DNA of 63,383 nt, the filler included, from an uncultured Methanosarcinales archaeon (GTDB taxonomy: Archaea > Nanobdellota > Nanobdellia > Woesearchaeales > CAYXTQ01): assembly GCA_964608065.1 (NCBI GenBank). It is 3 parts of 3 records of this genome, joined end to end, with 100 filler letters (N's around TTAATTAATTAA, not from the genome) between each part and the next. Parts side by side here need not be neighbours in the genome. Positions count along the whole stretch, not along the records: positions 43,929 to 63,383 come from CAZSMA010000018.1; 2 more parts are not named here. The stretch is one strand, 5' to 3'. The notes under the pieces are model-generated. The model was given only the letters and a program-made list of their open reading frames with translations, had not been told where the DNA came from and searched no databases. A program made the translations under genes and the position numbers. This document shows, piece by piece, positions 44,733 through 63,383 of this stretch. The stretch's first letter is position 1, and each line of letters starts with the position of its first letter.

Positions 44733-46208
44733 ATGAAAATACTACTTATAAATCCGCCAACATTGCATACAAAATGGAATATCATAGGAGCTGTAAATCC
44801 TCCTTTGAGTATTATGTATCTAAGTGCAGTTGCGAAGCAAAAAGGTTATGAGGTTGAGATATTGGATGCTTTAGCAGAGGCTCCTAGCAATGTTAATAGC
44901 TATAATGGATTTGAATATAAGGGAATGTCTTTTAAGGAAATAGCAGAGCATTGTAAAAAGTTTGATATTGTCGGTATAACAAATCTTTTTTCATATTCTT
45001 TTCCAATAGTTTCAGCGCTTTCTTCAGAAATAAAGAATAAAATAAATATTCCCATTGTGGTTGGAGGTACACATGCAAGCGCTTTGCCAGAATATTCACT
45101 GAAAAATTCAGAGATAGATTATGTTTTAATTGGAGAGGGTGAGGATAGTTTTATTGAACTTTTAGATTCTTTAAAGAATGGAGAAAATGTCAAAAGTATT
45201 AAAGGCATAGGATATAAGAAAGGTAAAGGTGTATTTGTGAATAAAGAGATAAGGTTTGTAAAGAATCTTGATAAATTGCCATTTCCTGACAGAGATGGAA
45301 TAGACTTAGAGCTTTATTATAAAGCAAAAGAAGCACATGGTCCTGTTTCTGGAAAATGGACTCCTATAATGTCCTCCAGGGGCTGCTCATTTAAATGCAC
45401 TTATTGCACTTCCCCTAATTTCAATAATAAGTATAGGTCAAGATCTCCAGAGAATTTTGTCAGAGAGATAGAAGAATGCATAGAAAAGTACGGGATTAAG
45501 GAGTTTATGATTGAGGATGAAAATTTTACACTAGAGAAAAAAAGAGTTATTGAGATATGCAAATTAATATTGAAAAAAAAGTTGAAGATAAAGTGGCAGT
45601 TACCAAATGGCATAAGAGCTAGTGTTACTGACAGAGAAACATTAGAATATATGAAGAAAGCTGGTTGTTTTTATTTGTGTATTGCTCCTGAGTCTGGTTC
45701 AGAGAGAATTTTAGAAGAGGTTATTAATAAAAAACAAAATCTTGATAAGGTTTTGCAAGTTGCTAAAGATTGTGTAGATTTAGGAATCAAAGTTGGTGCT
45801 TTTTTTATCTTAGGATTTCCAACTGAGAAGAAAGAAGATATTAAAAAAACATTAAACTTTGCATTAAAGTTGGCTAGGGTTGGTGTAGATGATGTTATAG
45901 TTTCTAATTTGGGTATGCTGCCTGGATCTGAGATGTTTTATAAGTTCATAAAAGATAAAAGTATTGTTATAGATGATAAATTTTTTACAAGTTTAGTTAC
46001 AATCAGTGATTTTGCTTCAAGAGCGTCATGGTCTGAATATGTTTCTGGAGACTATATTATGAGAATGAGAGGGAGAATAACCTTTTTGTTCCATTTAAAT
46101 AAATTATTTTACCATCCTTTAAAAACAATGAAGTCATTTTTTAATATATTGACTTTAAAGCAAGAGACAAAAACAGAAAAAGCTGCGATAAACCTTATCA
46201 AAAGATAA
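44733..46208 (+). CDS. Cobalamin-binding radical SAM protein 1
   Basis: PPLSIMYL, GGTHAS, GEGE, SSRGCSFKCTYC, PESGS. Confidence 0.92.
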   Translation: MKILLINPPTLHTKWNIIGAVNPPLSIMYLSAVAKQKGYEVEILDALAEAPSNVNSYNGFEYKGMSFKEIAEHCKKFDIVGITNLFSYSFPIVSALSSEIKNKINIPIVVGGTHASALPEYSLKNSEIDYVLIGEGEDSFIELLDSLKNGENVKSIKGIGYKKGKGVFVNKEIRFVKNLDKLPFPDRDGIDLELYYKAKEAHGPVSGKWTPIMSSRGCSFKCTYCTSPNFNNKYRSRSPENFVREIEECIEKYGIKEFMIEDENFTLEKKRVIEICKLILKKKLKIKWQLPNGIRASVTDRETLEYMKKAGCFYLCIAPESGSERILEEVINKKQNLDKVLQVAKDCVDLGIKVGAFFILGFPTEKKEDIKKTLNFALKLARVGVDDVIVSNLGMLPGSEMFYKFIKDKSIVIDDKFFTSLVTISDFASRASWSEYVSGDYIMRMRGRITFLFHLNKLFYHPLKTMKSFFNILTLKQETKTEKAAINLIKR

Positions 46209-46210
46209 AA

Positions 46211-47617
46211 TCATTTTTTAATAGCTTCTATAAGAACTCTTGCATTAGCTTGTTTTGGATACCTGATATTAAGCAAGTAACAGATTGTAGGGCATATGTC
46301 TGTGATTGAAGGTGTATAGTCGAGAACTTTGTTTTTACTGATGCCTTTTCCAACCATTAACAATGGGACTTCTGTTTCTGATTTTGAAGCATAACCATGG
46401 TCCATAACTGTCTGGCCATGGTCTGAGCTGATTATGACTATAGTATCATTTAGAACCTTGTTTTTAGTAAGGAAATTAAAGAAATCCCCCAGTCTTTTAT
46501 CAGTCTCTGTTAATGCTTCAAGATATTTTTTTGAATTACTACCATAAGAGTGACCTATCATATCAATTAGACTTATGTCCACTATAAATAATCTTGAGCT
46601 TTTTTCTAAAATGTCTTTTTTTAGTTTTTGAAATAAAATATCATCAACTTTAAAACCATATTTTGATATAGGTACAACATGTGTATCCCAATTTTTTCTA
46701 CTGATGTCATTGAAGTGTATGTTTCCATAATTAGATGTTTTGACTAAATCAGGTAATGCTTCAAATTTGTGCTCTTTTTTGTAGTTGTTATTCCTTACTT
46801 TATGTTTCTCAGGAGTTGTTCCTGTAAGTATGCTTATGAAAGCAGGGTTAGTCATGGTTGGGTAAACTGATTTTACGCCATATCTGAAATAGGTTCCTTG
46901 TTTTTTTAATTTATCTAAGAAAGGTGTTTTAGCAGCATTAAATTTATCTAATCTTACACCATCAAGATTTAGATAAATGACTCTATTTGCAATTTTTTTT
47001 CTTTGTTTTGGCATAAATCTTTTAGATTTGTGTGATTTAGGCAGAAATAATAGGGTTACAATAAATGCAACTAAAACAAAAAATAATAACAAACCAGCAT
47101 AGATATCATTAAATGGATTTGGTGTAAAAAACGCAAAATAAGAAAAAAAAGTTGAGTAAAATACACATACTATAAGGCTAGAGTTATTTGGTGTTATTGT
47201 AAAAATGCTGTTAAATATAACTCTAAAAATTATACTGATTTTTCCTCTTGAAATTATTTGATAAGGAATATGGTAAACAAACAGATGTGAAAAAAAGAAA
47301 AGTAATATGTTAATGATTAGAAGCTGTACAGCTATTGTTGCATTAAAATTGTTTACATTGAGGAATAAATATAAAAAAACCGGCAAAAATAATATGAAAT
47401 AAGGAAAAAAATTGATTTTTCTCAGAATGATTGATAGGAATAAAATATAAAATATTGAAAAAAAAAAAAAAGGTATATTGAAAATGTTAATGTTCATGAT
47501 AAAACTTAAAATAAGTACACTTGCTAGACCAAAGATTATAAAATAGGTGTCAATAACATTAATTAAGTATATTACTTTGCTTGTATATTTTTCGAATTTA
47601 TGTATTAGGTTTGCCAT
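46211..47617 (-). CDS. Membrane protein with C-terminal alkaline-phosphatase-superfamily (NPP/phosphodiesterase-like) domain
   Basis: Several N-terminal TMs; LDGVR, YPTMTNP (Thr nucleophile region), DMIGHSYG, SSDHG, DHG. Confidence 0.85.
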   Translation of the reverse strand: MANLIHKFEKYTSKVIYLINVIDTYFIIFGLASVLILSFIMNINIFNIPFFFFSIFYILFLSIILRKINFFPYFILFLPVFLYLFLNVNNFNATIAVQLLIINILLFFFSHLFVYHIPYQIISRGKISIIFRVIFNSIFTITPNNSSLIVCVFYSTFFSYFAFFTPNPFNDIYAGLLLFFVLVAFIVTLLFLPKSHKSKRFMPKQRKKIANRVIYLNLDGVRLDKFNAAKTPFLDKLKKQGTYFRYGVKSVYPTMTNPAFISILTGTTPEKHKVRNNNYKKEHKFEALPDLVKTSNYGNIHFNDISRKNWDTHVVPISKYGFKVDDILFQKLKKDILEKSSRLFIVDISLIDMIGHSYGSNSKKYLEALTETDKRLGDFFNFLTKNKVLNDTIVIISSDHGQTVMDHGYASKSETEVPLLMVGKGISKNKVLDYTPSITDICPTICYLLNIRYPKQANARVLIEAIKK

Positions 47618-48696
47618 TTGAAAATATTTTTTATTTTGTAATATATGTTAAAACCAAGATTATATACCAAATAATTTGTAATAGGCATAACAATTCTTGG
47701 TTCAATATAACACACAAACATGTCTTTTTGACAAAGTTTGCAATTTTTTATTTCTTTTAGTTTATTTTTATAATCCTTGCTTTTAAATATTTTTTTTATT
47801 CCATTATCAGCTGGAAAACCATCTTGCCAGTTAAAATAATTTAAGCAAGGATAAAGTTTGTTGTCTTCTTTAAATTCAATAAAGAATGAAGGGTTGATAC
47901 ATTTTTGCTTGAAGATTCCTTTGTTTAGATTTCCTTTGAAATAGTTTGGAATATTAGTTAAATAGTATTTGCTGTTTACTACATTTTTCTTTTCTAATAA
48001 TTTTTTGACTAATTTTTGTGACTTTGATATAAATTCATTATCAAAATCAGTAAATTCAGCTTTTGTTTTTTGGTTCTTGAATGTAGGATGTTTCTGTATT
48101 GGCTGGAATTGTTGTCCTACTCTAAGTTTTTCTATGAAATTTGTGAATTCAGGAAGTTCGTCAATGTTTGAGGGAGAGATTATCGTGTTGACTACTACAT
48201 TAACACCTGCTTGTTTTAGAAGCTTTACAGCGTTTATAGCTTTATCATACGAGCCTTTGCCTCTGATTTTATCATGTGTTTCTTTAAAGCCGTCAATACT
48301 TACTGAAACTTCATTTATTTTTGTTTCAGCAAGTTTAGCAGCAATGTTTTTATCTATTGTGGTACCATTGGTCACTAGGTGCACAAATGGGATTTTTTTT
48401 TTTGAGTATGTTATCATCTCCATTATATCTTTATGTAATAATGGGTCTCCACCAGTAAAGCTTAGGTAATAACATCCTTTTAATTGATCAACAGTTTTGA
48501 AGAATAATTCTTTATTGAAATCTGATTTATCCTTATTTCTCCAGATATTGCACATATTGCAATGCAGATTGCATTTGTTGGTTATGTAGAAACCTGTTGC
48601 AAGTGGAAATGGTTTTTTAAGTAAGTAATAGTTGATATGCCACTTTAAAACCCTTCTTATTAGGATTTTTTTTTTTTTAATTTTTATTTTTCTCAT
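47605..48696 (-). CDS. Radical SAM protein with SPASM/twitch-like C-terminus
   Basis: ITNKCNLHCNMC, TGGDP, SIDG; C-terminal Cys in CINP, YPC, CKLC..C. Confidence 0.88.
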   Translation of the reverse strand: MRKIKIKKKKILIRRVLKWHINYYLLKKPFPLATGFYITNKCNLHCNMCNIWRNKDKSDFNKELFFKTVDQLKGCYYLSFTGGDPLLHKDIMEMITYSKKKIPFVHLVTNGTTIDKNIAAKLAETKINEVSVSIDGFKETHDKIRGKGSYDKAINAVKLLKQAGVNVVVNTIISPSNIDELPEFTNFIEKLRVGQQFQPIQKHPTFKNQKTKAEFTDFDNEFISKSQKLVKKLLEKKNVVNSKYYLTNIPNYFKGNLNKGIFKQKCINPSFFIEFKEDNKLYPCLNYFNWQDGFPADNGIKKIFKSKDYKNKLKEIKNCKLCQKDMFVCYIEPRIVMPITNYLVYNLGFNIYYKIKNIFKWQT

Positions 48697-48697: not shown

Positions 48698-50122
48698 CTA
48701 GGCTTTATCTTTTACTAAAAATCTTTTTACTGTTGAAAACCATTGCGATGGTGTTAGTTTCATTGGAAATATAAATTGATGGGTGTAACCATACCATAAT
48801 CTGTACATTATCTCATAGATCTTAGTAAGGGGTAATTTGATTAGTAACTTTGTTATAGGGTATAGTCTTGGAAAACTAACTGTGATTGCAAAAAGTTTTT
48901 GCAAGTTTTCTGTTTGTATCTTCTCAGATTTGCTTCTGAATTTCAATGCAGATTTCATGTAATAGTTGTAGTCAAGTTTATTATAGTTTCCATCGAAATA
49001 CCCATTTTTAACTGCAAAATCTCCTAATGGTGTTTTAGGATATGGTTGGAATAAAGTTACCCATGAATAAGCTGGTTTACATTTAATATTAATTTCTAGT
49101 GTTTTGAAAATGCTATTTAGATTTTCACCAGGGTATCCTATTATATTATCAAGTATAACTAAAATATGGTGTTTTCTCAAAAGATTACATGCATTTATAT
49201 GTTGTTCATTCGTGTTTGGTTTTTTTAATACTTTTTTACGCATTATATCGCTGCCAGTTTCAATGCCTAACTGCACACTCACACATCCTGCTTTTTTTAA
49301 TAGTTGTACTCTTTCTTCTGTTGCCATATCGGCAGAGAATCTGCAATGGAAAGGGATATTTATCTTTGATTTATATTTATCACAGAATTCTTTTAGCCAT
49401 TTTAAGTCAACTCCAAAAAAATCATCATCAAATCTTACTAATCCTAGAGGATATTTACTCTTAACAAGTTCTATCTCTTCTATTACACTATTAACACTCC
49501 TTGTACGGACCATTTTTCCTTTTCCTTGATACATATCTAAGTAAGCAGCATTATGGCAGAAAGTGCATCTGTAAGGGCAACCCCTAGTTACTATAAATGT
49601 TTTTTGAGGGTTGTTTTTTAGAAATTTGTCTTTGTTGTACAATAGTTCACGGTCCCATAAAGGGATTGAATCAAGGTCTTCAATTAAATGTCTCACTTCA
49701 TTTTTGTATATTTTACCGTCAGTTTTAACCCACCAGTTTGGGATATGTTTTATTTTTTCTGTGCCAAACATATTGATAAAATCTAGTATTGCTAGTTCAC
49801 CTTCACCAACACAAACAGAGTCAACACCATAGTCATTTATTATTTCAGGAAAATAAGTTGCATGCGGCCCTCCATAGATTGTAAATATGTTATGTTTTTT
49901 TTTCAACTTTCTTCCTAGGTTAATGTAGTATTTATGAAATCCAGTTGTAATGCTGAATCCCACTATTTTTGGTTTCCATTCTCTGATAATTTTGTCAATG
50001 TCTTCTCTTTCAGCAAAAGCTAATTTAACTTCATGACCATGTTTTTTTAGAACTGCAGATAATTGAGGTAATGCTTTAAATTCATAGATGTATATATTCT
50101 TGTAGATGAATAGTATCTTCAT
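48698..50122 (-). CDS. Cobalamin-binding radical SAM protein 2
   Basis: GGPHAT, GEGE, TRGCPYRCTFC, GIETGS. Confidence 0.92.
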   Translation of the reverse strand: MKILFIYKNIYIYEFKALPQLSAVLKKHGHEVKLAFAEREDIDKIIREWKPKIVGFSITTGFHKYYINLGRKLKKKHNIFTIYGGPHATYFPEIINDYGVDSVCVGEGELAILDFINMFGTEKIKHIPNWWVKTDGKIYKNEVRHLIEDLDSIPLWDRELLYNKDKFLKNNPQKTFIVTRGCPYRCTFCHNAAYLDMYQGKGKMVRTRSVNSVIEEIELVKSKYPLGLVRFDDDFFGVDLKWLKEFCDKYKSKINIPFHCRFSADMATEERVQLLKKAGCVSVQLGIETGSDIMRKKVLKKPNTNEQHINACNLLRKHHILVILDNIIGYPGENLNSIFKTLEINIKCKPAYSWVTLFQPYPKTPLGDFAVKNGYFDGNYNKLDYNYYMKSALKFRSKSEKIQTENLQKLFAITVSFPRLYPITKLLIKLPLTKIYEIMYRLWYGYTHQFIFPMKLTPSQWFSTVKRFLVKDKA

Positions 50123-51637
50123 TTAGTTGCCTCCTAAAAATTCATTAGACTTTCTTTTTATCTGCCATAAATAATACTTTAGATATGTAAGACCTTCCAG
50201 GTCTTTTTTTTTTATTGAGACTAAAATATCAATGGTCCAAAGAGCAAGATATTTCGGGATATATTTTAAAATACGTTGAAGTTTGTGTTTTAATACGAAT
50301 CTTATAAATCTTCCTGGCAATAATGGAATGGCTCTCATCAATATATTGTATGAGTTTAATGCCTTAATCTTTTTCTTGTCTTTAAGAGAGCCCGTTTTAA
50401 GGTAAAAGCAGTTATCTTCAACATTATTTATCTTTTCAACATCTTTGTCTGTAAGTATGTTCATTTTTCTTGCAATATCAACAATCTCTGTTCCAGGAAA
50501 ATATGCAAGCCAGAAGCATGTAATTCTCATTAGAGATTTGCAGTAGGAGTATATGTAAGTTGATTTTATATGGTCTTGTTCAGATTCTCCTGGAAGATTG
50601 AAGATATGATCAATAGAGTATGGAATCTTTGCTTTGTCACAAGCTTTAAATCCATCTATGATTCTTTCATTCGAGAAAGGTCTATGAAGCACTTCTTTTC
50701 TTATTTTTTCATTCATTGTTTGAACTCCGAACTGGCATTTAAAACATCCTGCTTTTTTTAGTGCTGAAGCAACTTCATAGTCAATAGTTGCAGGGTGTGT
50801 CATTACTTTGAATGGTGTTTTTATGTCTTTTTGATATTTTTTGCAGAAGTCTAAAGCCCATTTTTTGTCTATTGTGAATGTGTTGTCCCTTATATCTAGG
50901 GTTCTGAATTTGTATTTTTGCTTCATTTCTTTTAACTCAGTTATTACAATATCAACATCTTTTCTTACAAAGTATCTTCCTGTTTTAGGTTCATATATCG
51001 GCTGTAGAAAAGATTCAGAGCAGTAAGTGCATTTGAATGGACAGCCTTTTGTTGTAACTATTATGAAGCTGTTGTTCATAGGAATGACTTTTTCAAAAAG
51101 TGATTTATCATATCTAGGAAAATCACACCCTTTCATCGGAGGCCTTATTGGGTTTTTGATAATCTTCTTTTCTTTTTTGAACCATAGGTTTTCGATTTTG
51201 TAGTTGATGTTGCCTTTAGACATACTTTCAAGAAGTTCAAGTAGAGGTTGTTCACCCTCACCTCTACAGATGATATCAACCCATGCCTTTTTTATCAGAT
51301 TTTCAGGATTTGATGTAGGGTATATGCCTCCACAAACTATTGGAATGTTTGGTGCTTTCTTCTTTAGTAAGATTGCTATTTTTTCTGTCCAATTTAGTGT
51401 GTCAGTTATAATGTAGAAACCAATAATGTCTGGATTTGTTTTAAGAATTTTGTTTACGATTTTTTTTTGGTTTATTCTGAATATTTTTGCCAAGGTTTTG
51501 TTATGGAAATAAACTTTATCGTCGAATAATGATGGATCAAAAACTAAGGAAACTTTGTGTTTTTTTCTTTTTAGGGCTGTGGATAATGCCTCTAAGCCTA
51601 AAAGTTCACAACCCATTGCAGCAAAAGTTATATTCAT
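50123..51637 (-). CDS. Cobalamin-binding radical SAM protein 3
   Basis: LGLEALS, GGIYPT, GEGE, TKGCPFKCTYC, GVQT. Confidence 0.92.
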   Translation of the reverse strand: MNITFAAMGCELLGLEALSTALKRKKHKVSLVFDPSLFDDKVYFHNKTLAKIFRINQKKIVNKILKTNPDIIGFYIITDTLNWTEKIAILLKKKAPNIPIVCGGIYPTSNPENLIKKAWVDIICRGEGEQPLLELLESMSKGNINYKIENLWFKKEKKIIKNPIRPPMKGCDFPRYDKSLFEKVIPMNNSFIIVTTKGCPFKCTYCSESFLQPIYEPKTGRYFVRKDVDIVITELKEMKQKYKFRTLDIRDNTFTIDKKWALDFCKKYQKDIKTPFKVMTHPATIDYEVASALKKAGCFKCQFGVQTMNEKIRKEVLHRPFSNERIIDGFKACDKAKIPYSIDHIFNLPGESEQDHIKSTYIYSYCKSLMRITCFWLAYFPGTEIVDIARKMNILTDKDVEKINNVEDNCFYLKTGSLKDKKKIKALNSYNILMRAIPLLPGRFIRFVLKHKLQRILKYIPKYLALWTIDILVSIKKKDLEGLTYLKYYLWQIKRKSNEFLGGN

Positions 51638-54933: not shown

Positions 54934-56577
54934 ATGGGATATAAAAAAAAATATAAATTCATAACCAAATCGGGGTTACATCTATTTATAATCATACTTC
55001 TAGTACTCGTATCTTATGTTAATATGCTTGATAACGAATTTATTGATGTTGGATTAGATGATAGCCAGTTTCCTGTTTTAGAACCACATTTAAAAGATTG
55101 GAGCAATATAATATCTTTTTTTAAAGGTCAGAAAACAGCAGAACATGGTAGACTGTATGAGGCTTATAGACCTCTTGCGTACACCTCTCATCTTATTACT
55201 TATAAAATGTGGGGGCTTAGCCCTTTTGGATATCATTTAAATGCACTAATTGTTTATCTTATTGTTATTGTTTTGGTTTACTTTGTTGTTAAACACATCA
55301 CAAATTCTATGATAGCATTTCTGACAACATTGTTGTTTGGAGTTCATGCTGTTCATACTGAAGTAGTTTCTTATGCATTTAATGGAGCTTTTATGGGATT
55401 AAGTTTCCTTTTCCTTTTCCTTTCTTTTTATTTGTATATTAGATCAGAAGTTTCTAAAAATAAGTTATTAATGTATCTTGGATCTTTATTATTTGCTTTA
55501 CTTGCTTTTTTTACTTATGAAATTACAATAGTTTTACCTTTATTGATAATCTTTTATGATATTTGTTTTAAAAAAATCAAAAAATATAATTTAAAGAGTA
55601 AAATTAAACAATATCTACCTTATTTTTTAGCAGTAATTTTTTATTTTTTTATGAAGTTTGTTGTGTTAGGTTTTGGAGCAAAAACCCAGGGAGGATGGCC
55701 ATTCTATAAAAAAATGCTTGTAATGAGTTATGCTTTTTTTAGGTATATTTTTTATGCGATTTTGCCAATTAATCTAGGAGAGGTTTGGTTTTGGAAATAT
55801 ATAGATGTTTCAATTTTAAACCCCAAATCATTTCTTCCTATAATTTTGTTTATTGCGCTTGTATGGCTTGTTTTTAAGTTTTTAAGGAAACAACCAGTAA
55901 TATCTTTTGGCATAGGCTGGTTTATTATTTCTTTGTTGCCTGTATCGAATATCTTTCCAGTAGGAACTGTAATGGCAGAGAGATATATGTATATTGCATT
56001 ATTTGGTTATTGTTTGTTAATGGGTTATTTAGTTTATAAATTTTTTAGTAATAAGTCTAAAATTATAAAGTACGTTGCTGTTATTGCATATTTATTTTTG
56101 GTTATATTCAATACAGGCGCAACAATATCCAGGAATAATGATTGGCAAGATGGAATTACTATGTGGGAAAAAACAATTGAGCAGTCTCCAGAATCTTCTG
56201 CAGCCAGGTTATCAATGGGATTAACATATTTAGGTTTTGGTGAATATGATAAAGGTGTAATTGCTTTAAAAAAAAGCCTTCAATTAGAACTACAAGATAT
56301 TGGTGATTTAAATTCTTTAGATAGAGTGTACTCTAATCTGGCTTATGCTTATTCTTTAAAAGGAGACTATGATTTAACAATACATTATAATAAGAAGGCA
56401 ATAGAAGTTAATCCTAATAATTATAGATATTATAACAACATTGGTTGGACTTATTTTAACAAAGGAGATTATGAAGAAGCAGAAGTTAATCTAAAAAAAA
56501 GCCTTGAGATTAATCCAAATTTTGAGTTAGCAAAAAATAATCTTGAGTATTTGTATTTAGTGATGAATAAAACGTAA
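54934..56577 (+). CDS. TMTC-like GT-C membrane glycosyltransferase with C-terminal TPR repeats
   Basis: DD in first loop, YRPL, HLNA, HAVHTEVV, AERYMY, RNNDW, TPR repeats. Confidence 0.82.
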   Translation: MGYKKKYKFITKSGLHLFIIILLVLVSYVNMLDNEFIDVGLDDSQFPVLEPHLKDWSNIISFFKGQKTAEHGRLYEAYRPLAYTSHLITYKMWGLSPFGYHLNALIVYLIVIVLVYFVVKHITNSMIAFLTTLLFGVHAVHTEVVSYAFNGAFMGLSFLFLFLSFYLYIRSEVSKNKLLMYLGSLLFALLAFFTYEITIVLPLLIIFYDICFKKIKKYNLKSKIKQYLPYFLAVIFYFFMKFVVLGFGAKTQGGWPFYKKMLVMSYAFFRYIFYAILPINLGEVWFWKYIDVSILNPKSFLPIILFIALVWLVFKFLRKQPVISFGIGWFIISLLPVSNIFPVGTVMAERYMYIALFGYCLLMGYLVYKFFSNKSKIIKYVAVIAYLFLVIFNTGATISRNNDWQDGITMWEKTIEQSPESSAARLSMGLTYLGFGEYDKGVIALKKSLQLELQDIGDLNSLDRVYSNLAYAYSLKGDYDLTIHYNKKAIEVNPNNYRYYNNIGWTYFNKGDYEEAEVNLKKSLEINPNFELAKNNLEYLYLVMNKT

Positions 56578-56598
56578 TTAATCTATGAATGAACAAAA

Positions 56599-58044
56599 AT
56601 GGCAGATGTTATACTTGTACAACCTAAGCTAGGGTATATGGATTCAATTAGGACCAAGCCGTTTTTACCATTAGGTCTAATTTCTAGCGCAACATTGATA
56701 GCTCAAGAATATGATGTCGTATTGATAGACCAAAGGATGGAAGGCTGGCAGACTAAGCTTAAGAATGAGTTAAAGAAAAACCCATTGTGTGTTGCAACTA
56801 CAGCAATAACTGGTTCACAGATTAAACATGCTCTTGAGATAAGCAGATTTGTTAAAGCAAATTCAGAAAGTAAGATGATATGGGGAGGGATTCATGCAAG
56901 TATATTGCCTAGGCAAACTTTAAGAAACGAAAATGTTGATATAGTTATTGAAGGAGAAGGCGAAATAACCCTATATGAACTTGTAAAATCCTTAAAAAAA
57001 GAAAATAAAGAAATTAGAGGTATAAAAGGAACATATTGTAAAAACAAAAATAAGATTACTGCTAATAAACCTAGGGGATTTGTTAATTTAGATAAATTAC
57101 CTGGTTTGCCATATCGTTTAGTTGATATTAGAGATTATATGCCTTTATATCAGGGAAAAAAGTCTGTATCAATACAATCTTCAAGGGGGTGTATACATCA
57201 GTGTGCGTATTGCTATAATACCCCTTTTAATAAAGGCTGTTGGCGGCCAGTGCCTGTAAAAAAAGTAATAGAACAAATGAACTTTTTAGTTGAGAATGGC
57301 GCTGAAAATTTGTATTTTGTTGATGATAATTTTTTTGTAGATTTAAAGAGAGGAATGGAAATTGCAAAGGAAATAAAGAAAATTGGAGTTAATTGGGGGC
57401 TTCAAGGAGTAACTCATTTTTCATTAAAAAAAATGAATAAAGACCATTTAGAATTTTTAGGAAAAACAAACTTAGGAAGGATGTCAATTGGTATTGAAAG
57501 CGGTTCTGAGAGAATAAGGCAGATGATCGGCAAATTGGAAAAACCAAAGGAGCTTATAGAATTAAACAAAAAACTTTCAAAATTCAATATTATTCTATAT
57601 TATACGTTTATGATGGGGTTTCCAACAGAAACAGAAGCTGAAATAATGCAAACAGTAAATTTGCTTTTTAGGTTGCTGAAGGATAATAAAAATGCAAGAA
57701 ATTCACCAATATACAATCTTATGCCATATCCTGGGACAAAGATTTTGGAAATAGCAAAAGAACATGGATTTAAAGAGCCACAAAGTCTTGAAGGATGGGC
57801 TAATTATGAGCACCATAATGTAAATGTTCCATATATTAAAGATAAGGAAAAATTTAAGAGAATATATTTTAGCTCAATATTCCTAGATAATAAATTTGAT
57901 GAGTATAATACTTCTTTTCTATTCAAGATGTTTAGCAGGATTTACAGACCAATAGCAAGATATCGTTTAAAGCACCAGTTTTTTGATTTTATGATAGCAA
58001 AAAAAATGGCAGATGTTTTTATGAATAACTCAAATTACAAATAA
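56599..58044 (+). CDS. Cobalamin-binding radical SAM protein 5
   Basis: LPLGL, WGGIHAS, GEGE, SSRGCIHQCAYC, GIESGS. Confidence 0.92.
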   Translation: MADVILVQPKLGYMDSIRTKPFLPLGLISSATLIAQEYDVVLIDQRMEGWQTKLKNELKKNPLCVATTAITGSQIKHALEISRFVKANSESKMIWGGIHASILPRQTLRNENVDIVIEGEGEITLYELVKSLKKENKEIRGIKGTYCKNKNKITANKPRGFVNLDKLPGLPYRLVDIRDYMPLYQGKKSVSIQSSRGCIHQCAYCYNTPFNKGCWRPVPVKKVIEQMNFLVENGAENLYFVDDNFFVDLKRGMEIAKEIKKIGVNWGLQGVTHFSLKKMNKDHLEFLGKTNLGRMSIGIESGSERIRQMIGKLEKPKELIELNKKLSKFNIILYYTFMMGFPTETEAEIMQTVNLLFRLLKDNKNARNSPIYNLMPYPGTKILEIAKEHGFKEPQSLEGWANYEHHNVNVPYIKDKEKFKRIYFSSIFLDNKFDEYNTSFLFKMFSRIYRPIARYRLKHQFFDFMIAKKMADVFMNNSNYK

Positions 58045-58057: not shown

Positions 58058-59473
58058 TTACTTTCCTTTCAGTACATTCAAAAATCCTTTAAATCCTTTA
58101 ATGACTTCTAAAGTGTTTTTTGGACTAAGTAATCTTTTAGCATAGAAAAAAATTTGTTTAGGCCTGAGATAGAATTTTCTGTAAGCAATTTTATAATATT
58201 TTTTTAATATGTCTTTTGAAAGATCTTTTGGAATAAAGTTAGGTTCATAGAACTTAAAATGTTCTGGATTATTGAATATTCCATATTCTTGATAGTTTTC
58301 ATATAATGGTGCTCCTGGGACTGGTGTGAAGTAGTTTAAATACATTTCATCAAGAGGTAATTCAAGCATGAATTTTAATGTCTTTTTTATATCCTCTTCT
58401 GTTTCCCCAGGTAAACCAATCATAAAAAATCCACGGGCATTTATACCTGCCTTTTTTGCCATATAAACTGCTTTTTTGATTTGATCTAAACTTATGTTTT
58501 TTTTCAGTATGTCTAATATTCTTTGTGAACCAGATTCAATACCATACATTATCTCCCAGCAGCCGCTTTTTTTCATTAATTTTAAAATGTTATAGTTAAC
58601 CTGGTCTACTCGCGCATCACATGACCATGTGATGTCTATTTTTTCTTTTATTATTCTGTTGCATATTTCTTCAACTCTTTTTCTTGATAAAAGAAAGTTA
58701 TCTTCATAAAAACAGATATCTTTTATCTTGTACTTTTTTATTAGGAATTTTATTAATCTGATTACATAATCTGCACTAAAGAATCTGCATGTGCTTCCGT
58801 ATATTGCTTTTGAGCAGAAAGCGCATTTTCCAAAACAACCACGGGAGGTTATTATTGAAAAAGTTGGTGATCTCTTGTAGTTTGTAATAGCAGGCTTGTA
58901 ATATTTATCAACATTCTCCAGAAGGTCGTAAGCAGGAAATGGCAGTTCATCAAGGTTTTTTATATATTCGCGAGGTTTAGTTTTTATAAGCTTTCCATTA
59001 TGTCTGAATATAATACCATCTATTTTTATAAGTTTATCATATTTTGCATCAGATTCCATAAGTTCTAGAATAGTAATTTCTCCTTCTTGGAGAACACCAA
59101 AATCTATGCTTTTACATTTTTCCATTGTTTCTTCAGGCAATGCAGTTATATGTGCACCGCCCAGAACAGTTTTTATGTTAGGATTCATATTCTTAACAAG
59201 ATCCATAAACTTAAATGTGCTTATTATAAGTCTTGATGTAGCACTTATACCTATAAAATCAGGATTTTCTTTTTTTATTATCTCAATTAAATCTTCAGAA
59301 GTTAGTTTAGCAGGTAAAGGATCAATTATTTTTACTTCATGGTTGGCTTTTCTGATAACTGCAGCGAGACTTGCTAAGTTGTGTGGAGGAATCATACTGC
59401 CAGCTTCTTCAAAAGCCCCCCAAAATTTTGAATTGTCTGGAGGGGGAGTCATTAAAATTATTTTTTTTCCCAT
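58058..59473 (-). CDS. Cobalamin-binding radical SAM protein 6
   Basis: PPHNLASL, GGAHIT, EGE, TSRGCFGKCAFC, GIESGS. Confidence 0.92.
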   Translation of the reverse strand: MGKKIILMTPPPDNSKFWGAFEEAGSMIPPHNLASLAAVIRKANHEVKIIDPLPAKLTSEDLIEIIKKENPDFIGISATSRLIISTFKFMDLVKNMNPNIKTVLGGAHITALPEETMEKCKSIDFGVLQEGEITILELMESDAKYDKLIKIDGIIFRHNGKLIKTKPREYIKNLDELPFPAYDLLENVDKYYKPAITNYKRSPTFSIITSRGCFGKCAFCSKAIYGSTCRFFSADYVIRLIKFLIKKYKIKDICFYEDNFLLSRKRVEEICNRIIKEKIDITWSCDARVDQVNYNILKLMKKSGCWEIMYGIESGSQRILDILKKNISLDQIKKAVYMAKKAGINARGFFMIGLPGETEEDIKKTLKFMLELPLDEMYLNYFTPVPGAPLYENYQEYGIFNNPEHFKFYEPNFIPKDLSKDILKKYYKIAYRKFYLRPKQIFFYAKRLLSPKNTLEVIKGFKGFLNVLKGK

Positions 59474-59496: not shown

Positions 59497-60468
59497 CTAA
59501 ATCATCTTTTTTCTTAGTTTTAATAAATTGCCTATATTAGCATCAACTTGCCAGCCAGTGCATTCTCTGCAGATAGGATAATCTTTAAAGTCTAGGTTAA
59601 GATGAGCTCTTCTGAATTTTTTAAATGCTCCATTGTTCCAGATCTCTTCAATAGTGTTGTTATTTACATTACCCATTATCAGGCTGGAGTTATAATCAAG
59701 GCAGCATGGTGATACATTACCCTGATAGTCAATAGTCATCCAATACCATGGATAGTTGCAGACATAACGTTTATTATCCTTATGATTAGATTTTAAATCT
59801 AAGTCTTCTATATCCCCCCATTTAAAGAAGCAGCTGGTTTCAACCCAATCTGCTTTGTTTTTCCATTTTATTATGAATTCTTTTTCTTCGTTATGGTTTT
59901 CCTCTAGTTTCAGGAATTTTACCCTCACAAAAGGTTTTTTTAATTTGTTTTCATTTCTTAGCTTTAAAAAATCATTAACATTTTTTTCAACTTTTTCCAG
60001 ATAGTCATGTCCTTTTAGTTTTTTGTAAGTATCTGGGTTGACAGCATCTATACTTATCCTTAAATCATCAAGACCGCTGTTTAAAATCTTTTTACTCATT
60101 CCTTCATTTAGTAAAGAAGCGTTTGTAGTTATTTGTATTATGTGTGCTGCTTTTTTATCGTTAGCATATTTTATCAATTCATCAATTTTTGGATGTAGTA
60201 ATGGTTCTCCGTCTTTAGCCAGTCCAATAACACCCCTTTTTCCATATTTGACACTTTCATCAATCAGTTTTTTGTAAAGATTAAAATCAAGATAGCCTAA
60301 TTTTCTGTTTCCCTGCAGTCTTGGACAGAATCTGCAGCTTGAGTTACAGTTATTTGTAGCTTCAACAAACAAAAATAAAGGAAATTTTGATGAGATAAAT
60401 GTGTTTAGGAAAAGGCCTCTGGCTAATTTGCTTGTTTTTAACACCCTGATAAAGTCAGTTACCCTCAT
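59497..60468 (-). CDS. Radical SAM/SPASM-twitch protein (BtrN-like architecture)
   Basis: EATNNCNSSCRFC, GEPLL; CNYPW..SPCC..GN..ICREC. Confidence 0.9.
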   Translation of the reverse strand: MRVTDFIRVLKTSKLARGLFLNTFISSKFPLFLFVEATNNCNSSCRFCPRLQGNRKLGYLDFNLYKKLIDESVKYGKRGVIGLAKDGEPLLHPKIDELIKYANDKKAAHIIQITTNASLLNEGMSKKILNSGLDDLRISIDAVNPDTYKKLKGHDYLEKVEKNVNDFLKLRNENKLKKPFVRVKFLKLEENHNEEKEFIIKWKNKADWVETSCFFKWGDIEDLDLKSNHKDNKRYVCNYPWYWMTIDYQGNVSPCCLDYNSSLIMGNVNNNTIEEIWNNGAFKKFRRAHLNLDFKDYPICRECTGWQVDANIGNLLKLRKKMI

Positions 60469-61682
60469 TTTAAACTTTTGATGACCTCTTTGTAAACATC
60501 TTCTACTTTAATGTTTTTTATGCATAAATTATTTTTGCATTGCGATAATCTTTGATTATAGCCTGTTAGACATGGGCTACAAGCATAACCTAAACAAAAG
60601 GTTTTTAAATTTTTCCCAAGTTGCCCATATAATTCAGGAGTTCCTGGACCGAAGAAGATTAATGATTTGATGTTTGTTAATGAAGCAAAATGCGCTGGAC
60701 CGCAGTCACATGATACAAATACGTTGGATATGTTGAATAAATGGATTAATTCTGCCATATTGGTTGTTTGACCTGTGAAATCAATGCATCTGCTGTCTTT
60801 AATATAATCTTGTATCTTGATTGCTGCTTGTTTTTCATTTGCAAGCCCTATTATAACAACAAATAGATTATTGTTATTTTTTAAAATTTTATTTGTAAGT
60901 TCGCAATAGTTTTTAAGTGTCCAGTTTCTAAGAGACATCTGCATAGAAGGGTTAGGATTAATGATAATTATTTTGCTATTTGGGTTGATTTTGTTGTTTA
61001 TGTTCTTTAGTTTTGAATATATGTGCTTTTTATCTTTTTTATTGGATTTAATTGTTTGTAGTGAGTAGTCCTGGTCTTTAACATTTTTTTTTAATAATGG
61101 AATATCATTTAAGCTAGATTTTAATGACATGATCATTGCCATATAGCTTTTGCTTATATGTGTATGTTCTGTGTATTGTATTTTGTGGGTTTGGAAGTTT
61201 CCTATGTAAAGTCCTTTTAGATTATAAGGATGAAATCCAACCTTGTTTTTAGCACCACACCAAAAACCAAGCAATGTATTGAATCTTACAAATGGTTCAA
61301 GGTTGATTACTGTGTCAATATTTTTTATTCTAGCAGAAACTAGGAAATTTAAAGTGCTTAATATAAATGAAAATGGGTTTTTTGGGTTTATTGAGAAAAT
61401 ATTATTTAATCCTAGTGCCTTAAGGCCGTGTTCATTTCCTTTGAAAACAAGGAAGAATAGTTTTGAGTTTGGGAACAATCTTTTAGCTTTTTCAATAGCT
61501 GGTTTTGAGAGAACAATAATACCCATTTCAGCAAGGGATATGAACAATATGTTCTTAGGCTGTGTTTTTCCATGTTTTCTGTAAAATCCAAGAAATTTCC
61601 AAAAAGAAAGCCACATAGATGTAATGAAACATAAAGGAATACCTACATACATATCTATGAATCTTACCATCCCCTCATTCAT
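60465..61682 (-). CDS. GT9 heptosyltransferase-like glycosyltransferase 2
   Basis: ILFISLAEMG, RNW, DCGPAHFA, FGP, CSPC..C..C. Confidence 0.88.
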   Translation of the reverse strand: MNEGMVRFIDMYVGIPLCFITSMWLSFWKFLGFYRKHGKTQPKNILFISLAEMGIIVLSKPAIEKAKRLFPNSKLFFLVFKGNEHGLKALGLNNIFSINPKNPFSFILSTLNFLVSARIKNIDTVINLEPFVRFNTLLGFWCGAKNKVGFHPYNLKGLYIGNFQTHKIQYTEHTHISKSYMAMIMSLKSSLNDIPLLKKNVKDQDYSLQTIKSNKKDKKHIYSKLKNINNKINPNSKIIIINPNPSMQMSLRNWTLKNYCELTNKILKNNNNLFVVIIGLANEKQAAIKIQDYIKDSRCIDFTGQTTNMAELIHLFNISNVFVSCDCGPAHFASLTNIKSLIFFGPGTPELYGQLGKNLKTFCLGYACSPCLTGYNQRLSQCKNNLCIKNIKVEDVYKEVIKSLK

Positions 61683-61778
61683 AATTTAATTAAAATGACA
61701 GCATACTTATAAATATTTTGTGAAATAAACCTAAAAAAAAGAGAAAACTTAATAAATTAATAAATAAAAATCAGTATA

Positions 61779-62642
61779 ATGGGGTTGAGTATGGAAAAAG
61801 ACAGTATAGTCATTGCAGCAGACCATAATGGTGTAGAGTTAAAAGCACATATAAAGGTGCATTTAAAGGAATTAGGCTATAATTGTGTAGATTTAGGACC
61901 TTATACTGGGGGGAAGAAGGTTGATTATGTTGATTATGCTAATCAGGTTGGAGAGATTGTAAACCAAGGAGATGTAAAAAAAGGAATCCTGATCTGCGGT
62001 ACTGGGGTTGGTATGAGTATTGTTGTCAATAAGTTTCCTAATGTAAGGGGCGCTTTGGTTCATAATGTAGATACTTCAATAAAGTCTAGGGAGCATAATG
62101 ATTCAAATGTGCTGTGCTTCGGATCATGGGTTATTAATAAAGAATTAGCTGTTAAGATTGTGGATAGTTGGCTTAATGGTTCTTTTAGTGAAGGAAGGCA
62201 TGTAAAAAGGCTTGAGAAGATTGTTCCACACAGTAAGGAAAAGATAATATTTACTAATGGAATATTTGATGTTTTACATACAGGCCATATAGAGCTGTTG
62301 AAATTCTGTAAAAGTCTTGGAGGCATGTTGATTGTTGGTATAAATTCAGACAGAGCAGTTAAAGAACTGAAAGGACCTGGAAAGCTGATAAATAATGAAG
62401 AAGATAGAAAGATGGTTTTAGAGTCTGTAGGGTTTGTTGATGAGGTTGTTACTTTTGATGATATTGGGACTAAAAGTATAATAGATGAAATAAAGCCGAA
62501 TATAGTTGTTAAAGGTGGAGATTGGACAGCAGAAGAAGTAAGGAAGAGAGATAATATCCCTGATGATATAGAAGTTAAGGTCTTTCCGTTTGTTGATGAT
62601 ATCTCCACAATAAATAACAAAGTATTGAACCTAAGAAAATGA
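61779..62642 (+). CDS. RpiB/LacAB sugar-phosphate isomerase fused to HldE(RfaE) domain II-type nucleotidyltransferase
   Basis: ADHNG, DYVD, ICGTGVG, REHNDSN, GRHVKR; then TNGIFDVLHTGH (HIGH), GINSD, VKGGDW. Confidence 0.9.
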   Translation: MGLSMEKDSIVIAADHNGVELKAHIKVHLKELGYNCVDLGPYTGGKKVDYVDYANQVGEIVNQGDVKKGILICGTGVGMSIVVNKFPNVRGALVHNVDTSIKSREHNDSNVLCFGSWVINKELAVKIVDSWLNGSFSEGRHVKRLEKIVPHSKEKIIFTNGIFDVLHTGHIELLKFCKSLGGMLIVGINSDRAVKELKGPGKLINNEEDRKMVLESVGFVDEVVTFDDIGTKSIIDEIKPNIVVKGGDWTAEEVRKRDNIPDDIEVKVFPFVDDISTINNKVLNLRK

Positions 62643-63383
62643 GTATAAAGAAAAAAAAAGTTTTGTTAGTTGGAGATTTAATTCTTGATGTATATGTGCA
62701 TGGAACATATATTGGTGAATCATTGGAGACTCCAACAATTGTTGCTAAAGAGGATAAAAAAGAAAAATTCTTTGGGGGCTCAAGTCTTGTTGCAAGGAAT
62801 CTTTTGGAATTGGGTGCAGAAGTATGCTATATTTCTGTTTTAGGAGGAGATGAAGAGTCAAAACATTATGATAATTTTGAACACAAGAACCTTAAAAAGA
62901 ATTTTATATTAGATAAAAGCAGAAAGACAACAGTAAAAAAAAGGTTTTGGGTAGATGGCTATAAGATGCTGCAGTTTGATAATCTGGATAATAAGGATAT
63001 TGAAGAGAAAATAGAAAAACAAGTTATTGATTTGTTTAGAAAAAATATTGATTGGTGTGATGTTGTTGTAGTAGCAGATTACAGGCATGGTATGATGACA
63101 AAGAAACTGATTTCTGATATGAAAAAAATTGCAGAAGAGAATAATAAAATGATAATTGTTGATTCACAAGTTAGCCATAGGGAAAGTGTGCATGAACTTT
63201 ATAAGGATTTTTATTTGGTATGCTTGAGTGAAAAAGAAGCAAAAGAGATTGATCCAAACTATTTACCTAGTTTAGATTTGCAATCTTTTGATGTGTTAAA
63301 AAGCAAACTAGGAAATTCTAATATTTGTGTTAAATTAGGAGAAAAAGGTTCTATAAGTTTAATAGATGGAGCTGTTTATGAGA
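62639..63383 (+). CDS. HldE(RfaE) domain I-like PfkB sugar-phosphate kinase (truncated by window end)
   Basis: Manual translation MSIKKKKVLLVGDLILDVYVHG..SLETPT..GGSSLVARNLLELG..TTVKKRF..ADYRHG..KLGEKG; ATGA overlap with upstream stop. Confidence 0.88.
   Translation, partial: MSIKKKKVLLVGDLILDVYVHGTYIGESLETPTIVAKEDKKEKFFGGSSLVARNLLELGAEVCYISVLGGDEESKHYDNFEHKNLKKNFILDKSRKTTVKKRFWVDGYKMLQFDNLDNKDIEEKIEKQVIDLFRKNIDWCDVVVVADYRHGMMTKKLISDMKKIAEENNKMIIVDSQVSHRESVHELYKDFYLVCLSEKEAKEIDPNYLPSLDLQSFDVLKSKLGNSNICVKLGEKGSISLIDGAVYE

Follow-up and report, generated by a model that had tools for sequence, protein, structure and literature searches.

A radical-SAM-rich gene island that probably makes a cell-surface glycoconjugate in a DPANN-type archaeon

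This work concerns a gene island in an uncultured DPANN-type archaeon (GTDB order Woesearchaeales; NCBI GenBank assembly GCA_964608065.1). The window, meaning the whole stretch of DNA that was analysed, is 63,383 bases long. Its last contig, C18 (43929-63383; 19,455 bp), is in its entirety an island rich in radical S-adenosylmethionine (SAM) genes, which runs on into a second, small contig, C113. The island combines six class-B-type radical SAM genes and two twitch/SPASM-type radical SAM genes with two family 9 glycosyltransferases (GT9), a GT-C-type membrane glycosyltransferase that bears tetratricopeptide repeats (TPR), a membrane-anchored enzyme of the alkaline phosphatase (AlkP) superfamily and a sugar-activation cassette. 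What does such a combination of genes make? The GT9 enzymes, the TPR-bearing GT-C protein and the membrane AlkP-type enzyme are hallmarks of envelope glycoconjugate assembly. We propose, at a probability of about 0.7, that C18 and C113 together form a strain-variable island that makes a cell-surface glycoconjugate. This proposal is built on gene content, operon packing, gene combinations that recur in relatives and the conservation of the cassette.

By BLAST against its own bin (G000; 1.40 Mb in 131 contigs, 96.8% complete, 2% contamination), the window consists of three contigs, C12 (1-22070), C13 (22171-43828) and C18, joined by N spacers at 22071-22170 and 43829-43928. A third run of N at 53031-53130 is a scaffold gap inside C18. 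Features read across these spacers or the gap are artefacts, as exemplified by an open reading frame (ORF) at 43881-44660 that runs into a spacer. C12 and C13 between them carry all the archaeal signature genes (the FttA KH domain, a proteasome subunit, the LonB LID domain and diphthamide synthase), and a family scan of the genes of C18 found no archaeal marker gene there. Because the stretch is made of separate contigs, the upstream archaeal markers are not on the molecule of C18 as assembled. The end of C18 overlaps the start of C113 (2,967 bp) by 55 identical bases, and a comparison of contig ends across the bin linked no other end to C18 or C113. The island therefore continues past 63383 into C113 and spans at least 22.4 kb. 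Its genes are as follows, with positions counted along the window unless C113 is named.

43929-44660, minus strand: truncated membrane-anchored protein with two repeats of about 110 residues and no family match, at the edge of C18
44733-46208, plus strand: rS1, class-B-type radical SAM enzyme, 491 residues (PF02310 62.9 bits, PF04055 98.3 bits; CSFKCTYC at residue 218)
46211-47617, minus strand: membrane-anchored AlkP-superfamily enzyme, 468 residues (Phosphodiest 107.6 bits, Sulfatase 73.2 bits)
47605-48696, minus strand: rS2, twitch/SPASM-like radical SAM enzyme, 363 residues (PF04055 99.8 bits, Fer4_12; CNLHCNMC at residue 42)
48698-50122, minus strand: rS3, class-B-type radical SAM enzyme, 474 residues (CPYRCTFC)
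50123-51637, minus strand: rS4, class-B-type radical SAM enzyme, 504 residues (CPFKCTYC)
51634-52479, minus strand: class I SAM-dependent methyltransferase, 281 residues (Methyltransf_11 75.5 bits), overlapping both neighbours by 4 nt
52476-53672, minus strand: rS5, class-B-type radical SAM enzyme, interrupted by the 100-N gap at 53031-53130
53679-54854, minus strand: GT9a, family 9 glycosyltransferase, 391 residues (PF01075 133 bits)
54934-56577, plus strand: GT-C-type membrane glycosyltransferase with C-terminal TPR repeats, 547 residues (TPR families)
56599-58044, plus strand: rS6, class-B-type radical SAM enzyme, 481 residues (CIHQCAYC)
58058-59473, minus strand: rS7, class-B-type radical SAM enzyme, 471 residues (B12-binding and radical SAM domains)
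59497-60468, minus strand: rS8, SPASM/twitch radical SAM enzyme, 323 residues (SPASM 66.3 bits), overlapping GT9b by 4 nt
60465-61682, minus strand: GT9b, divergent family 9 glycosyltransferase, 405 residues (PF01075 44.2 bits)
61779-62642, plus strand: fusion of RpiB and an HldC-like nucleotidyltransferase, 287 residues, first gene of a cassette without GmhA
62639-63383, plus strand: PfkB-family kinase, HldE domain I-like, cut by the contig end and completed on C113
C113, 252-968: bicupin, 238 residues (cupin match)
C113, 1041-1748: AraD-like L-ribulose-5-phosphate 4-epimerase (subfamily model 329 bits, cut-off 257)
C113, 1745-2965, minus strand: membrane-anchored protein of 406 residues with no family match and transmembrane segments at both ends, cut by the contig end; the last island gene seen

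These genes are tightly packed. Intergenic gaps range from -13 to +96 nt, five junctions overlap or abut, and four transcription blocks can be drawn: a minus-strand operon of seven genes and 8.6 kb from 54854 to 46211, of which GT9a is the first gene; a plus-strand block from 54934 to 58044; a minus-strand block from 61682 to 58058; and a plus-strand block from 61779 onward. The first-pass annotation, which was made from the sequence alone, had listed six B12-type and two SPASM/twitch radical SAM genes, the methyltransferase, the GT9 enzymes, the GT-C/TPR protein, the AlkP-type enzyme, the RpiB fusion and the kinase, many with overlapping or abutting ends. Every one of these genes lies where it had been placed and the close junctions are real, but the cluster does not end at 63383 as supposed. 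Furthermore, the class-B genes are clustered far beyond chance, with six of them in 19.5 kb against 0.22 expected from 16 in 1.40 Mb (Poisson probability 1.4e-7).

The radical SAM genes belong to their superfamily by clear margins. PF02310 and PF04055 both score above the Pfam cut-offs in all six class-B-type genes, with 41.9-79 bits for PF02310 (cut-off 32.1), and five of the six carry the CxxxCxxC motif. The sixth, rS5, shows no such motif because the 100-N gap removes profile positions 169-263. Its B12 domain and the C-terminal half of its radical SAM core are collinear on one strand, and the interruption is an assembly defect rather than a sign of a degenerate gene. rS8 has CxxxCxxC, five to six C-terminal cysteines and a PF13186 match of 66.3 bits (cut-off 21.5). 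The assignment of rS2 to the SPASM/twitch group appears weaker than that of rS8: rS2 carries C-terminal cysteines at 266, 284, 319, 322 and 329 and aligns over its full length to SPASM families, and no SPASM Pfam match was found in it.

None of the six class-B-type enzymes attains the curated cut-off of a characterised family, in a comparison with NCBIfam models that took in HpnJ, BchE, PhpK/Sden_1168, ApyD, AprD4, QCMT, HpnR and BzaD among others. The best NCBIfam match of rS7 is HpnJ (239 bits, cut-off 578), with BchE at 207 bits. That of rS1 is the P-methyltransferase Sden_1168 (201 bits, cut-off 575), with PhpK also among its matches. The best matches of rS3 and rS4 are to ApyD and that of rS2 is to StsB, both enzymes of ribosomally synthesised and post-translationally modified peptides (RiPPs). 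In addition, rS2 scores 77 bits on the NCBIfam model of the cytosylglucuronate decarboxylase BlsE (cut-off 400), and BlsE is also its best match in the Protein Data Bank (PDB), at 66 bits, SkfB being another solved relative. The best PDB match of rS8 is BtrN (61.6 bits), in the C-terminal cluster region only. The solved relatives of rS1 and rS7 are AprD4 (83 bits for rS7, 64 bits for rS1), QCMT (9ccb; 78 bits for rS7), OxsB and TokK. To judge from these alignments, the closest solved relatives are enzymes that act on sugars or peptides, in a comparison that covered AprD4, BtrN, BlsE and DesII on the sugar side and Tes on the lipid side.

The six class-B paralogs of C18 are only 24-33% identical to one another, and for every one of them a closer relative exists elsewhere, so they represent old subfamilies that were brought together rather than recent duplicates. 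Among the sequences fetched, the closest relatives of rS1 and rS3 (288 and 372 bits) lie on contig C41 of the same genome, and the best match of rS7 (355 bits) is likewise on C41 or C44 of this genome, against 119-178 bits for siblings on C18. For rS3, an ORF of genome G014 follows at 347 bits. rS6 is closest to a gene of G030 (349 bits), and the best relative of rS4, in G023 (200 bits), directly adjoins a GT9 gene. The rS7 family comprises at least 2546 homologs at E<=1e-30, the best 120 of which are 37-48% identical to rS7 and, where named, come mostly from anaerobic bacteria. Four of these 120 (P0267, P0296, P0336 and P0354) are fusions of a class-B radical SAM enzyme to a class I methyltransferase, an arrangement that echoes the separate methyltransferase gene of the island.

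Do these enzymes use cobalamin? In the organism's own genome, at 96.8% completeness, no CobS, CbiB, FecCD (BtuC-type) or PduO-type gene was found. Solved relatives give no single answer: the best-scoring one, AprD4, binds no cobalamin, and QCMT (9ccb) does. A 2026 review (PMC12931638) states that neither AprD4 nor ArsL binds cobalamin and includes the C-methylation of carbohydrates in its list of class-B reactions; its text contains no instance of the word polysaccharide. Either cobamide would enter the cell by an unrecognised route, or many of these enzymes would not use it.

The two GT9 proteins are both members of family 9, since PF01075 has a cut-off of 22 bits. They miss the lipopolysaccharide (LPS) heptosyltransferase equivalog, GT9a narrowly at 130.8 bits (heptosyltransferase II) and GT9b at 46.6 bits, with a cut-off of 134.6. 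In a hydropathy scan of 15 island products, strong multiple transmembrane segments were confined to the GT-C/TPR and AlkP-type proteins. Each GT9 protein has one weak segment, and the radical SAM enzymes, the methyltransferase, the kinase and the nucleotidyltransferase have none. The GT-C/TPR protein has about 10 transmembrane segments within residues 14-395. It reaches 20.2 bits on GtrII (cut-off 30) and itself matches neither PF13231 (PMT_2) nor PF08409 (TMTC_DUF1736), families that many of its homologs carry; these homologs are mostly bacterial and at most 39% identical. D42, D43, R79, P80, H101, E196, R400 and W404 are invariant in all 34 aligned sequences, and the invariant DD would fit a GT-C active site in the first outer loop. 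A Protein Atlas look-up of the GT-C part returned, as leads only, TPR membrane proteins, some of them named GT87 or PMT. The AlkP-type protein has five to six transmembrane helices within residues 25-192, followed by a domain like those of sulfatases and nucleotide pyrophosphatases/phosphodiesterases (NPPs), which are also its PDB matches. At the edge of C18, the truncated protein at 43929-44660 has a transmembrane helix at residues 27-45 and is encoded by DNA with a 181-nt direct repeat (43950-44127 and 44280-44457, 88% identical); it could be a surface protein and a possible target of glycosylation.

The cassette at the end of the island consists of the RpiB-nucleotidyltransferase fusion, the PfkB kinase, the bicupin and the AraD-like epimerase. 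The RpiB domain (residues 10-148) passes the rpiB equivalog TIGR01120 (142.9 against 138.65 bits), and a second, stand-alone RpiB is encoded on contig C33 of the same genome. The nucleotidyltransferase reaches 130.5 bits on rfaE_dom_II (cut-off 181.5), and the contig-cut kinase reaches 141.6 bits on rfaE_dom_I, a 65%-identical ortholog 185 bits (cut-off 345). Of the two nucleotidyltransferase motifs defined in the available part of a commentary (PMC11461863), HxGH is present and (F/L)xxGxSTT is degenerate, reading ..DDISTI.. on C18 and MVKGKSTT in a copy on contig C11. Family scans detected no SIS (GmhA) or HAD (GmhB) domain on C18 or C113; both are present on C11. The first-pass annotation had proposed heptose-type sugar activation. 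The likeness of the kinase and the nucleotidyltransferase to HldE bears this out, but the scores below the cut-offs, RpiB in the place of GmhA, the lack of GmhB and the degenerate STT motif do not.

The cassette has a wide distribution. All of the best 120 database matches of the fusion carry both domains, at 55-70% identity, and the named ones come from Nanoarchaeota, Woesearchaeota, Pacearchaeota, Doudnabacteria and a deltaproteobacterium; the best cellular match belongs to an archaeon known from a metagenome-assembled genome (MAG), at 68%. Each of three cellular loci (the archaeon MAG, Bryobacterales and Pelagibacter) has the fusion, a PfkB kinase, a bicupin or AraD-like gene and a transaldolase/FSA gene, in this order, and in Pelagibacter a GT9 gene lies directly upstream. 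Furthermore, all ten viral contigs, with fusions at 55-61% identity, have the fusion, PfkB, AraD-like and cupin genes in that order. The cassette is a conserved, mobile and GmhA-free unit that also occurs in bacteria and viruses.

The same genome holds other heptose-type genes. Contig C11 bears a near-canonical ADP-heptose set (GmhA, an HldD-like epimerase, a kinase and a nucleotidyltransferase-GmhB fusion) together with GT9 and GT2 genes; the epimerase scores 269.9 against a cut-off of 274.6, the kinase 365 against 345 and the nucleotidyltransferase 173.7 against 181.5. Near-canonical sets of this kind also occur in relatives. Contig C28 carries a set that resembles the GDP-heptose route, with all scores below the cut-offs, and adjoins a class-B radical SAM gene. 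One genome of 1.4 Mb thus has three heptose-type modules, on C11 (L024, G000:C11:5000-22479), on C28 (L031) and on C18 with C113, the last of which is a third and different system and not the canonical heptose pathway. No TAL/FSA gene was found in the genome, and its transketolase gene is on C14. In a relative, an operon at G026:C26 (L018:12178-18564) encodes GmhA, a fused HldE, GmhA, a split transketolase, RpiB, Rpe and transaldolase, and thereby wires pentose-phosphate genes to heptose synthesis.

Is the association of radical SAM enzymes with glycan genes peculiar to C18? A profile of the six paralogs finds 16 B12-type radical SAM genes in the genome: C18 has six, C41 four, and C44, C52, C27, C28, C80 and C5 have one each. 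Pfam detects no B12 domain in a weaker match on C59. The surroundings of 15 of the 16 include genes for GT2, GT4, GT87 or GT9, nucleoside diphosphate (NDP)-sugar epimerases or dehydratases, UDP-glucose dehydrogenase, nucleotidyltransferases, Wzx-type flippases or a deacetylase-methyltransferase fusion. The exception, on C5, sits among housekeeping genes.

The pattern extends to relatives, which were sampled as 40 genomes, one per family of the same order, with a threshold of E<=1e-20 for class-B genes. Such genes occur in 28 of the 40, and several of these genomes have clusters, for example G030:C3, where 20 kb contain ten matches, and G014:C4, where 14 kb contain six. Pfam places glycosyltransferases near class-B genes in 9 of 11 multi-copy stretches from relatives. 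Other neighbours there are PMT_2 GT-C proteins, LPG_synthase_TM flippase-like proteins, class I methyltransferases, polysaccharide deacetylases, DegT aminotransferases, carbamoyltransferases, NeuB and Wzx. In at least nine pairs from seven genomes (loci L027, L028, L035, L039, L040, L041, L042 and L044), a class-B gene directly adjoins, and often overlaps, a small GT2 gene of about 230-290 residues. That the cluster is a glycan locus with radical SAM tailoring, as had been suggested at first sight of the sequence, agrees well with the glycan context of these stretches and of the genome's own B12-type genes.

GT9a homologs were found in 17 of the 40 relatives, often several in each, including the single-contig genome G025 and the three-contig genome G028. 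GT9 and class-B genes lie within 15 kb of each other on one contig in seven of the 40 (G001, G008, G014, G023, G024, G025 and G038). Six of these seven co-locations were confirmed in fetched stretches, and in G023, G024, G014 and G008 the two genes directly adjoin. The first 15 GT9a loci fetched had no class-B gene within 10 kb; other GT9 loci had one. GT9 and B12-type genes do recur together in the order; the exact island was found in no other genome examined.

Individual island genes also have counterparts in such settings. GT9b has orthologs in G008 (309 bits) and G026 (276 bits), whose neighbours in each case include another GT9 gene, a class I methyltransferase and a GT-C-like gene. Twitch enzymes of the rS8 type occur in 24 of 200 genomes of the order. 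On the 327-kb contig C2 of G113, an operon of GT9, GmhA, epimerase, fused HldE, GT9 and GT9 is followed by an rS8-like gene, and in G115 an rS8-like gene is divergent from an adjoining GT9 gene. Homologs of the AlkP-type protein are rare (3 of 200 genomes), and the best of them, in G115, lies among GT2, GT4, flippase-like and PMT_2 genes.

How might the island work? The cassette would activate a sugar drawn from intermediates of the pentose-phosphate pathway. In a first step, RpiB and the AraD-like enzyme would convert pentose phosphates in the direction of a higher ketose phosphate; in a second, an aldose phosphate would be formed by the cupin or by RpiB and activated by the PfkB protein, as an anomeric kinase, and the nucleotidyltransferase. 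The product would most likely be a nucleotide-activated sugar of seven or eight carbons, or another unusual sugar. To judge from their families, the two soluble GT9 enzymes would add the activated sugar on the cytoplasmic side, and protein or lipid at the outer face would be the target of the GT-C/TPR protein and the membrane AlkP-type enzyme. The six class-B-type and two twitch-type radical SAM enzymes, together with the methyltransferase, would tailor sugars at the nucleotide-sugar or lipid-linked stage. C-methylation, dehydration, ring contraction, oxidation or epimerisation are candidate chemistries for the set as a whole, with no assignment enzyme by enzyme.

Several known systems resemble parts of this scheme. 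With the ADP-L-glycero-beta-D-manno-heptose pathway, the island shares a PfkB kinase and a cytidylyltransferase-fold nucleotidyltransferase that match domains I and II of HldE best, as well as two GT9 enzymes (cf. WaaC, WaaF and WaaQ). However, C18 and C113 have no GmhA, GmhB or HldD, with RpiB, a bicupin and an AraD-like epimerase instead, and there is no lipid A acceptor. In the part available of the commentary PMC11461863 on Tang et al. 2024, heptose-making enzymes are described as functional in archaea, and the accessible portion of a preprint on the anammox S-layer (10.1101/2020.12.03.409086) indicates that oligo-heptose chains can decorate surface proteins outside LPS. The island GT-C, with its invariant DD in the first loop and its C-terminal TPR as in TMTC-type proteins, resembles the transferases of the GtrA/B/C, ArnC/D/E/F/T and PMT/TMTC systems, and further components as in Gtr- and Arn-type systems appear in the loci of relatives, namely a small GT2, an LPG_synthase_TM flippase-like protein and a Polysacc_deac_1 deacetylase. 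That deacetylase presumably parallels ArnD. The island GT-C nonetheless falls below the PMT_2 and TMTC Pfam cut-offs, and C18 has neither a GT2 nor a flippase.

Comparable radical SAM chemistry is known from antibiotic pathways, where GenK and GenD1 catalyse C-methylation, AprD4 diol dehydration, BtrN oxidation and BlsE decarboxylation, and to which DesII also belongs. AprD4, BtrN and BlsE are the closest solved relatives by sequence, and the DesII match is weak. The enzymes of these pathways have the same domain architectures as the island enzymes, and their substrates are carbohydrates. The island enzymes differ in lying in an envelope-glycan locus, in numbering eight per cluster and in reaching no family cut-off. 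The octose-8-phosphate to GDP-octose route of lincomycin employs the transaldolase LmbR, the isomerase LmbN, and LmbP, LmbK and LmbO. Like the cassette in other genomes, it combines an aldolase/transaldolase-type enzyme, a ketose/aldose isomerase, an anomeric kinase and a nucleotidyltransferase, but its enzymes are of other families, and the present genome has no TAL/FSA gene.

The cyclitol-ether branch of hopanoid synthesis consists of the GT2 enzyme HpnI, the deacetylase HpnK and the class-B radical SAM enzyme HpnJ, to which the archaeal calditol synthase may be compared. GT2/class-B and deacetylase/class-B neighbours recur in the present genome and in relatives, and would fit radical chemistry on a lipid-bound sugar. 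In contrast, C18 has no GT2 or deacetylase, and no hopanoid or calditol lipid genes accompany it. Finally, the enzymes that modify glycerol dialkyl glycerol tetraethers (GDGTs), namely GrsA/B, Gmm, Gms and Tes, form archaeal clusters that combine class-B with SPASM/twitch members, according to the available part of PMC11214058. They act on lipid cores, whereas the neighbours of the island enzymes are glycan genes. Our literature survey, supplements aside, found no description of glycan loci with B12-type radical SAM enzymes or heptosyltransferases in DPANN archaea, nor of such enzymes in O-antigen loci.

Several points weigh against a surface-glycan island. Its product, its acceptor and the activities of its enzymes, down to each individual reaction, are all predicted. 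None of the eight radical SAM enzymes reaches any NCBIfam cut-off, so that their chemistry can only be guessed at. Nothing in the assembly physically joins C18 to a contig that bears archaeal markers, and the loci of relatives were hand-picked for several radical SAM or GT9 genes rather than drawn at random. Pairs of class-B and SPASM radical SAM enzymes also modify archaeal lipids, as stated in the portion of PMC11214058 available. No orthologous island is seen in G001, a genome of the same genus that is 91% complete and has a single partial GT9a match (37% identity) and no match to the AlkP-type, rS8-type or fused RpiB protein. The fused RpiB-nucleotidyltransferase was absent, with the two domains present only separately, among 150 listed of 178 matches from 200 genomes of the order; this tally includes two unpublished genomes, G112 and G132, and no specific claim rests on either. 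Given that the fusion is missing from these matches, parts of the island are imports.

A serious rival to the surface-glycan reading, although we consider it unlikely, is the remodelling of membrane lipids. The radical SAM enzymes would then modify archaeal core lipids, the cell's own or scavenged from a host, as GrsA/B, Gmm, Gms and Tes do, or would make a carbocycle from a lipid-bound hexose as HpnJ and calditol synthase do, and the glycosyltransferases would add head groups. The accessible text of PMC11214058 lends this some weight, as GrsA/B and Gmm are B12-binding radical SAM enzymes, Gms is of the SPASM/twitch type, their genes cluster together, and 39 Gms and 6 Gmm homologs are counted in DPANN. 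The GT2/class-B pairs with overlapping ends would also fit the tailoring of lipid-linked sugars. rS2 and rS8 match Tes (7tol) at 35 and 29.8 bits, which is weak and well below the 66 bits for BlsE and the 62 bits for BtrN. HpnJ, the best NCBIfam match of rS7, acts on a lipid-bound sugar, but its score lies far below the cut-off. Moreover, neither C18 nor C113 contains an isoprenoid or ether-lipid gene, and the paralogs have genes for NDP-sugar enzymes, glycosyltransferases and Wzx around them rather than lipid-synthesis genes. In its lipid-linked-sugar version, this alternative overlaps a glycan island rather than opposing it.

We regard it as improbable that C18 and C113 were mis-binned and come from a low-GC bacterium (of the candidate phyla radiation (CPR) or Omnitrophota) or from its large virus; even so, the locus would still be a glycan locus. 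It is true that C18 joins only C113 and bears no marker gene, that the cassette occurs on ten viral contigs, in Bryobacterales and in Pelagibacter, that the named homologs of the GT-C protein and of rS7 are mostly bacterial, and that the fused form is missing from the matches listed for the order. However, in tetranucleotide composition C18 correlates with the remainder of the bin at 0.989, within a range of 0.90-0.996 for 68 contigs of at least 8 kb, and its GC content is 30.0%. The best fetched matches of rS1, rS3 and rS7 are on C41 or C44 of the same genome, and C41 also carries RtcB and Sua5. Equivalent loci lie on long contigs of archaea of the same order (G113:C2, 327 kb, and G025, a single contig of 774 kb), and the best cellular match of the fusion is archaeal. 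None of the ten viral loci has a viral structural gene or a B12-type gene within 10 kb of the cassette. A mis-binned bacterial LPS locus, which the first-pass annotation had named as its own undoing, is thus made improbable by composition, which it had put forward as a check of bin membership, by the paralogs on other contigs and by the loci of relatives.

Very improbable, finally, is a cluster for a small molecule or peptide natural product (aminoglycoside-like, phosphonate or RiPP) in place of a surface polymer: RiPP enzymes and P-methyltransferases are among the best NCBIfam matches, and AprD4 and BtrN come from aminoglycoside pathways, but none of these scores comes near its family cut-off, the locus has no gene for a protease, an exporter or a cyclase, and it does have GT9 genes, a GT-C protein with TPR and a membrane AlkP-type enzyme. 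Two specific forms were considered and rejected. A RiPP reading fails as the gaps of at most 96 nt leave no space for a precursor-peptide gene. A phosphonate reading, raised by the P-methyltransferase matches of rS1 and by a gene fusion in G013, fails as no phosphoenolpyruvate mutase gene was found in the organism's own genome. The fusion in question, on G013:C4 (L039:7471-10518), joins a cytidylyltransferase-like domain to a class V aminotransferase and directly follows an rS1-like gene. This layout recalls what we take to be phosphonate-tailoring enzymes, and the locus may, by analogy, point to phosphonate-decorated glycans in that relative.

The surface-glycan island is one instance of a theme that is common across this archaeal order and, to judge from named homologs, also in several bacterial phyla. 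The 16 class-B-type genes make up about 1.6% of the 1.4-Mb assembly. A broader proposal is tentative and may well prove wrong: class-B-type radical SAM subfamilies, old and divergent, would serve the ultra-small archaea of this order as a mix-and-match toolkit for placing C-methyl, deoxy, ring-contracted or branched sugars on heptose-like units that are lipid-linked or nucleotide-activated, and so for using radical chemistry to hypervary surface glycans against viruses or for contact with hosts. CPR, Omnitrophota and Elusimicrobia bacteria may, judged by named homologs, keep a similar toolkit. Since no cobamide synthesis or BtuC-type uptake genes were seen, many enzymes of the toolkit may have no need of cobalamin, or may use cobamide that enters by an unrecognised route.

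The occurrence of the sequence in other data sets was also surveyed. Sampled words of the stretch were found in groundwater metagenome runs, about three quarters of them in two runs of one study and fractions of 0.35 and 0.22 in runs of two other studies. An exact look-up of ten window proteins found seven in a protein collection (six as singleton clusters) and three absent, with no named member. Scans of metagenome contigs with the AlkP-type protein and with rS8 found no relative.

The other two contigs of the window carry further genes of interest. On C13, which also encodes archaeal LonB and ThrRS, a bacterial-type prolipoprotein diacylglyceryl transferase (LGT, 267 bits) lies at 30358-31122 on the minus strand. 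At 39124-42810 on the plus strand, two radical SAM genes and HydF (PF18133, 131 bits) follow the order of [FeFe]-hydrogenase maturases (HydG/HydE, HydE/HydG, HydF). At 42822-43784 on the minus strand, one gene joins a ThiI-like PP-loop domain to an NFACT-R_2 RNA-binding domain. A second copy of the C12 gene for FtsZ (1769-2786) lies at G000:C23:13299-14318 and is 77% identical in DNA sequence.

What does the island mean for the biology of these archaea? NDP-heptose enzymes have been reported to work in archaea and viruses, and the available part of the commentary PMC11461863 leaves the use of the sugar open. The island and the loci of relatives place GT9, GT-C and radical SAM tailoring enzymes next to such modules. 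Because transferases and tailoring enzymes adjoin heptose-type modules, the proposal that these sugars are building blocks of surface glycans becomes directly testable. For enzymology, the analysis brings forward several large uncharacterised class-B subfamilies, one with at least 2546 members, for which a probable class of substrate can be named. The genome, which has no recognisable cobamide genes, also offers a natural test of cobalamin dependence in such enzymes. More speculatively, a strain-specific glycan island would fit a role in recognition between cells, and between cells and viruses, in DPANN archaea.

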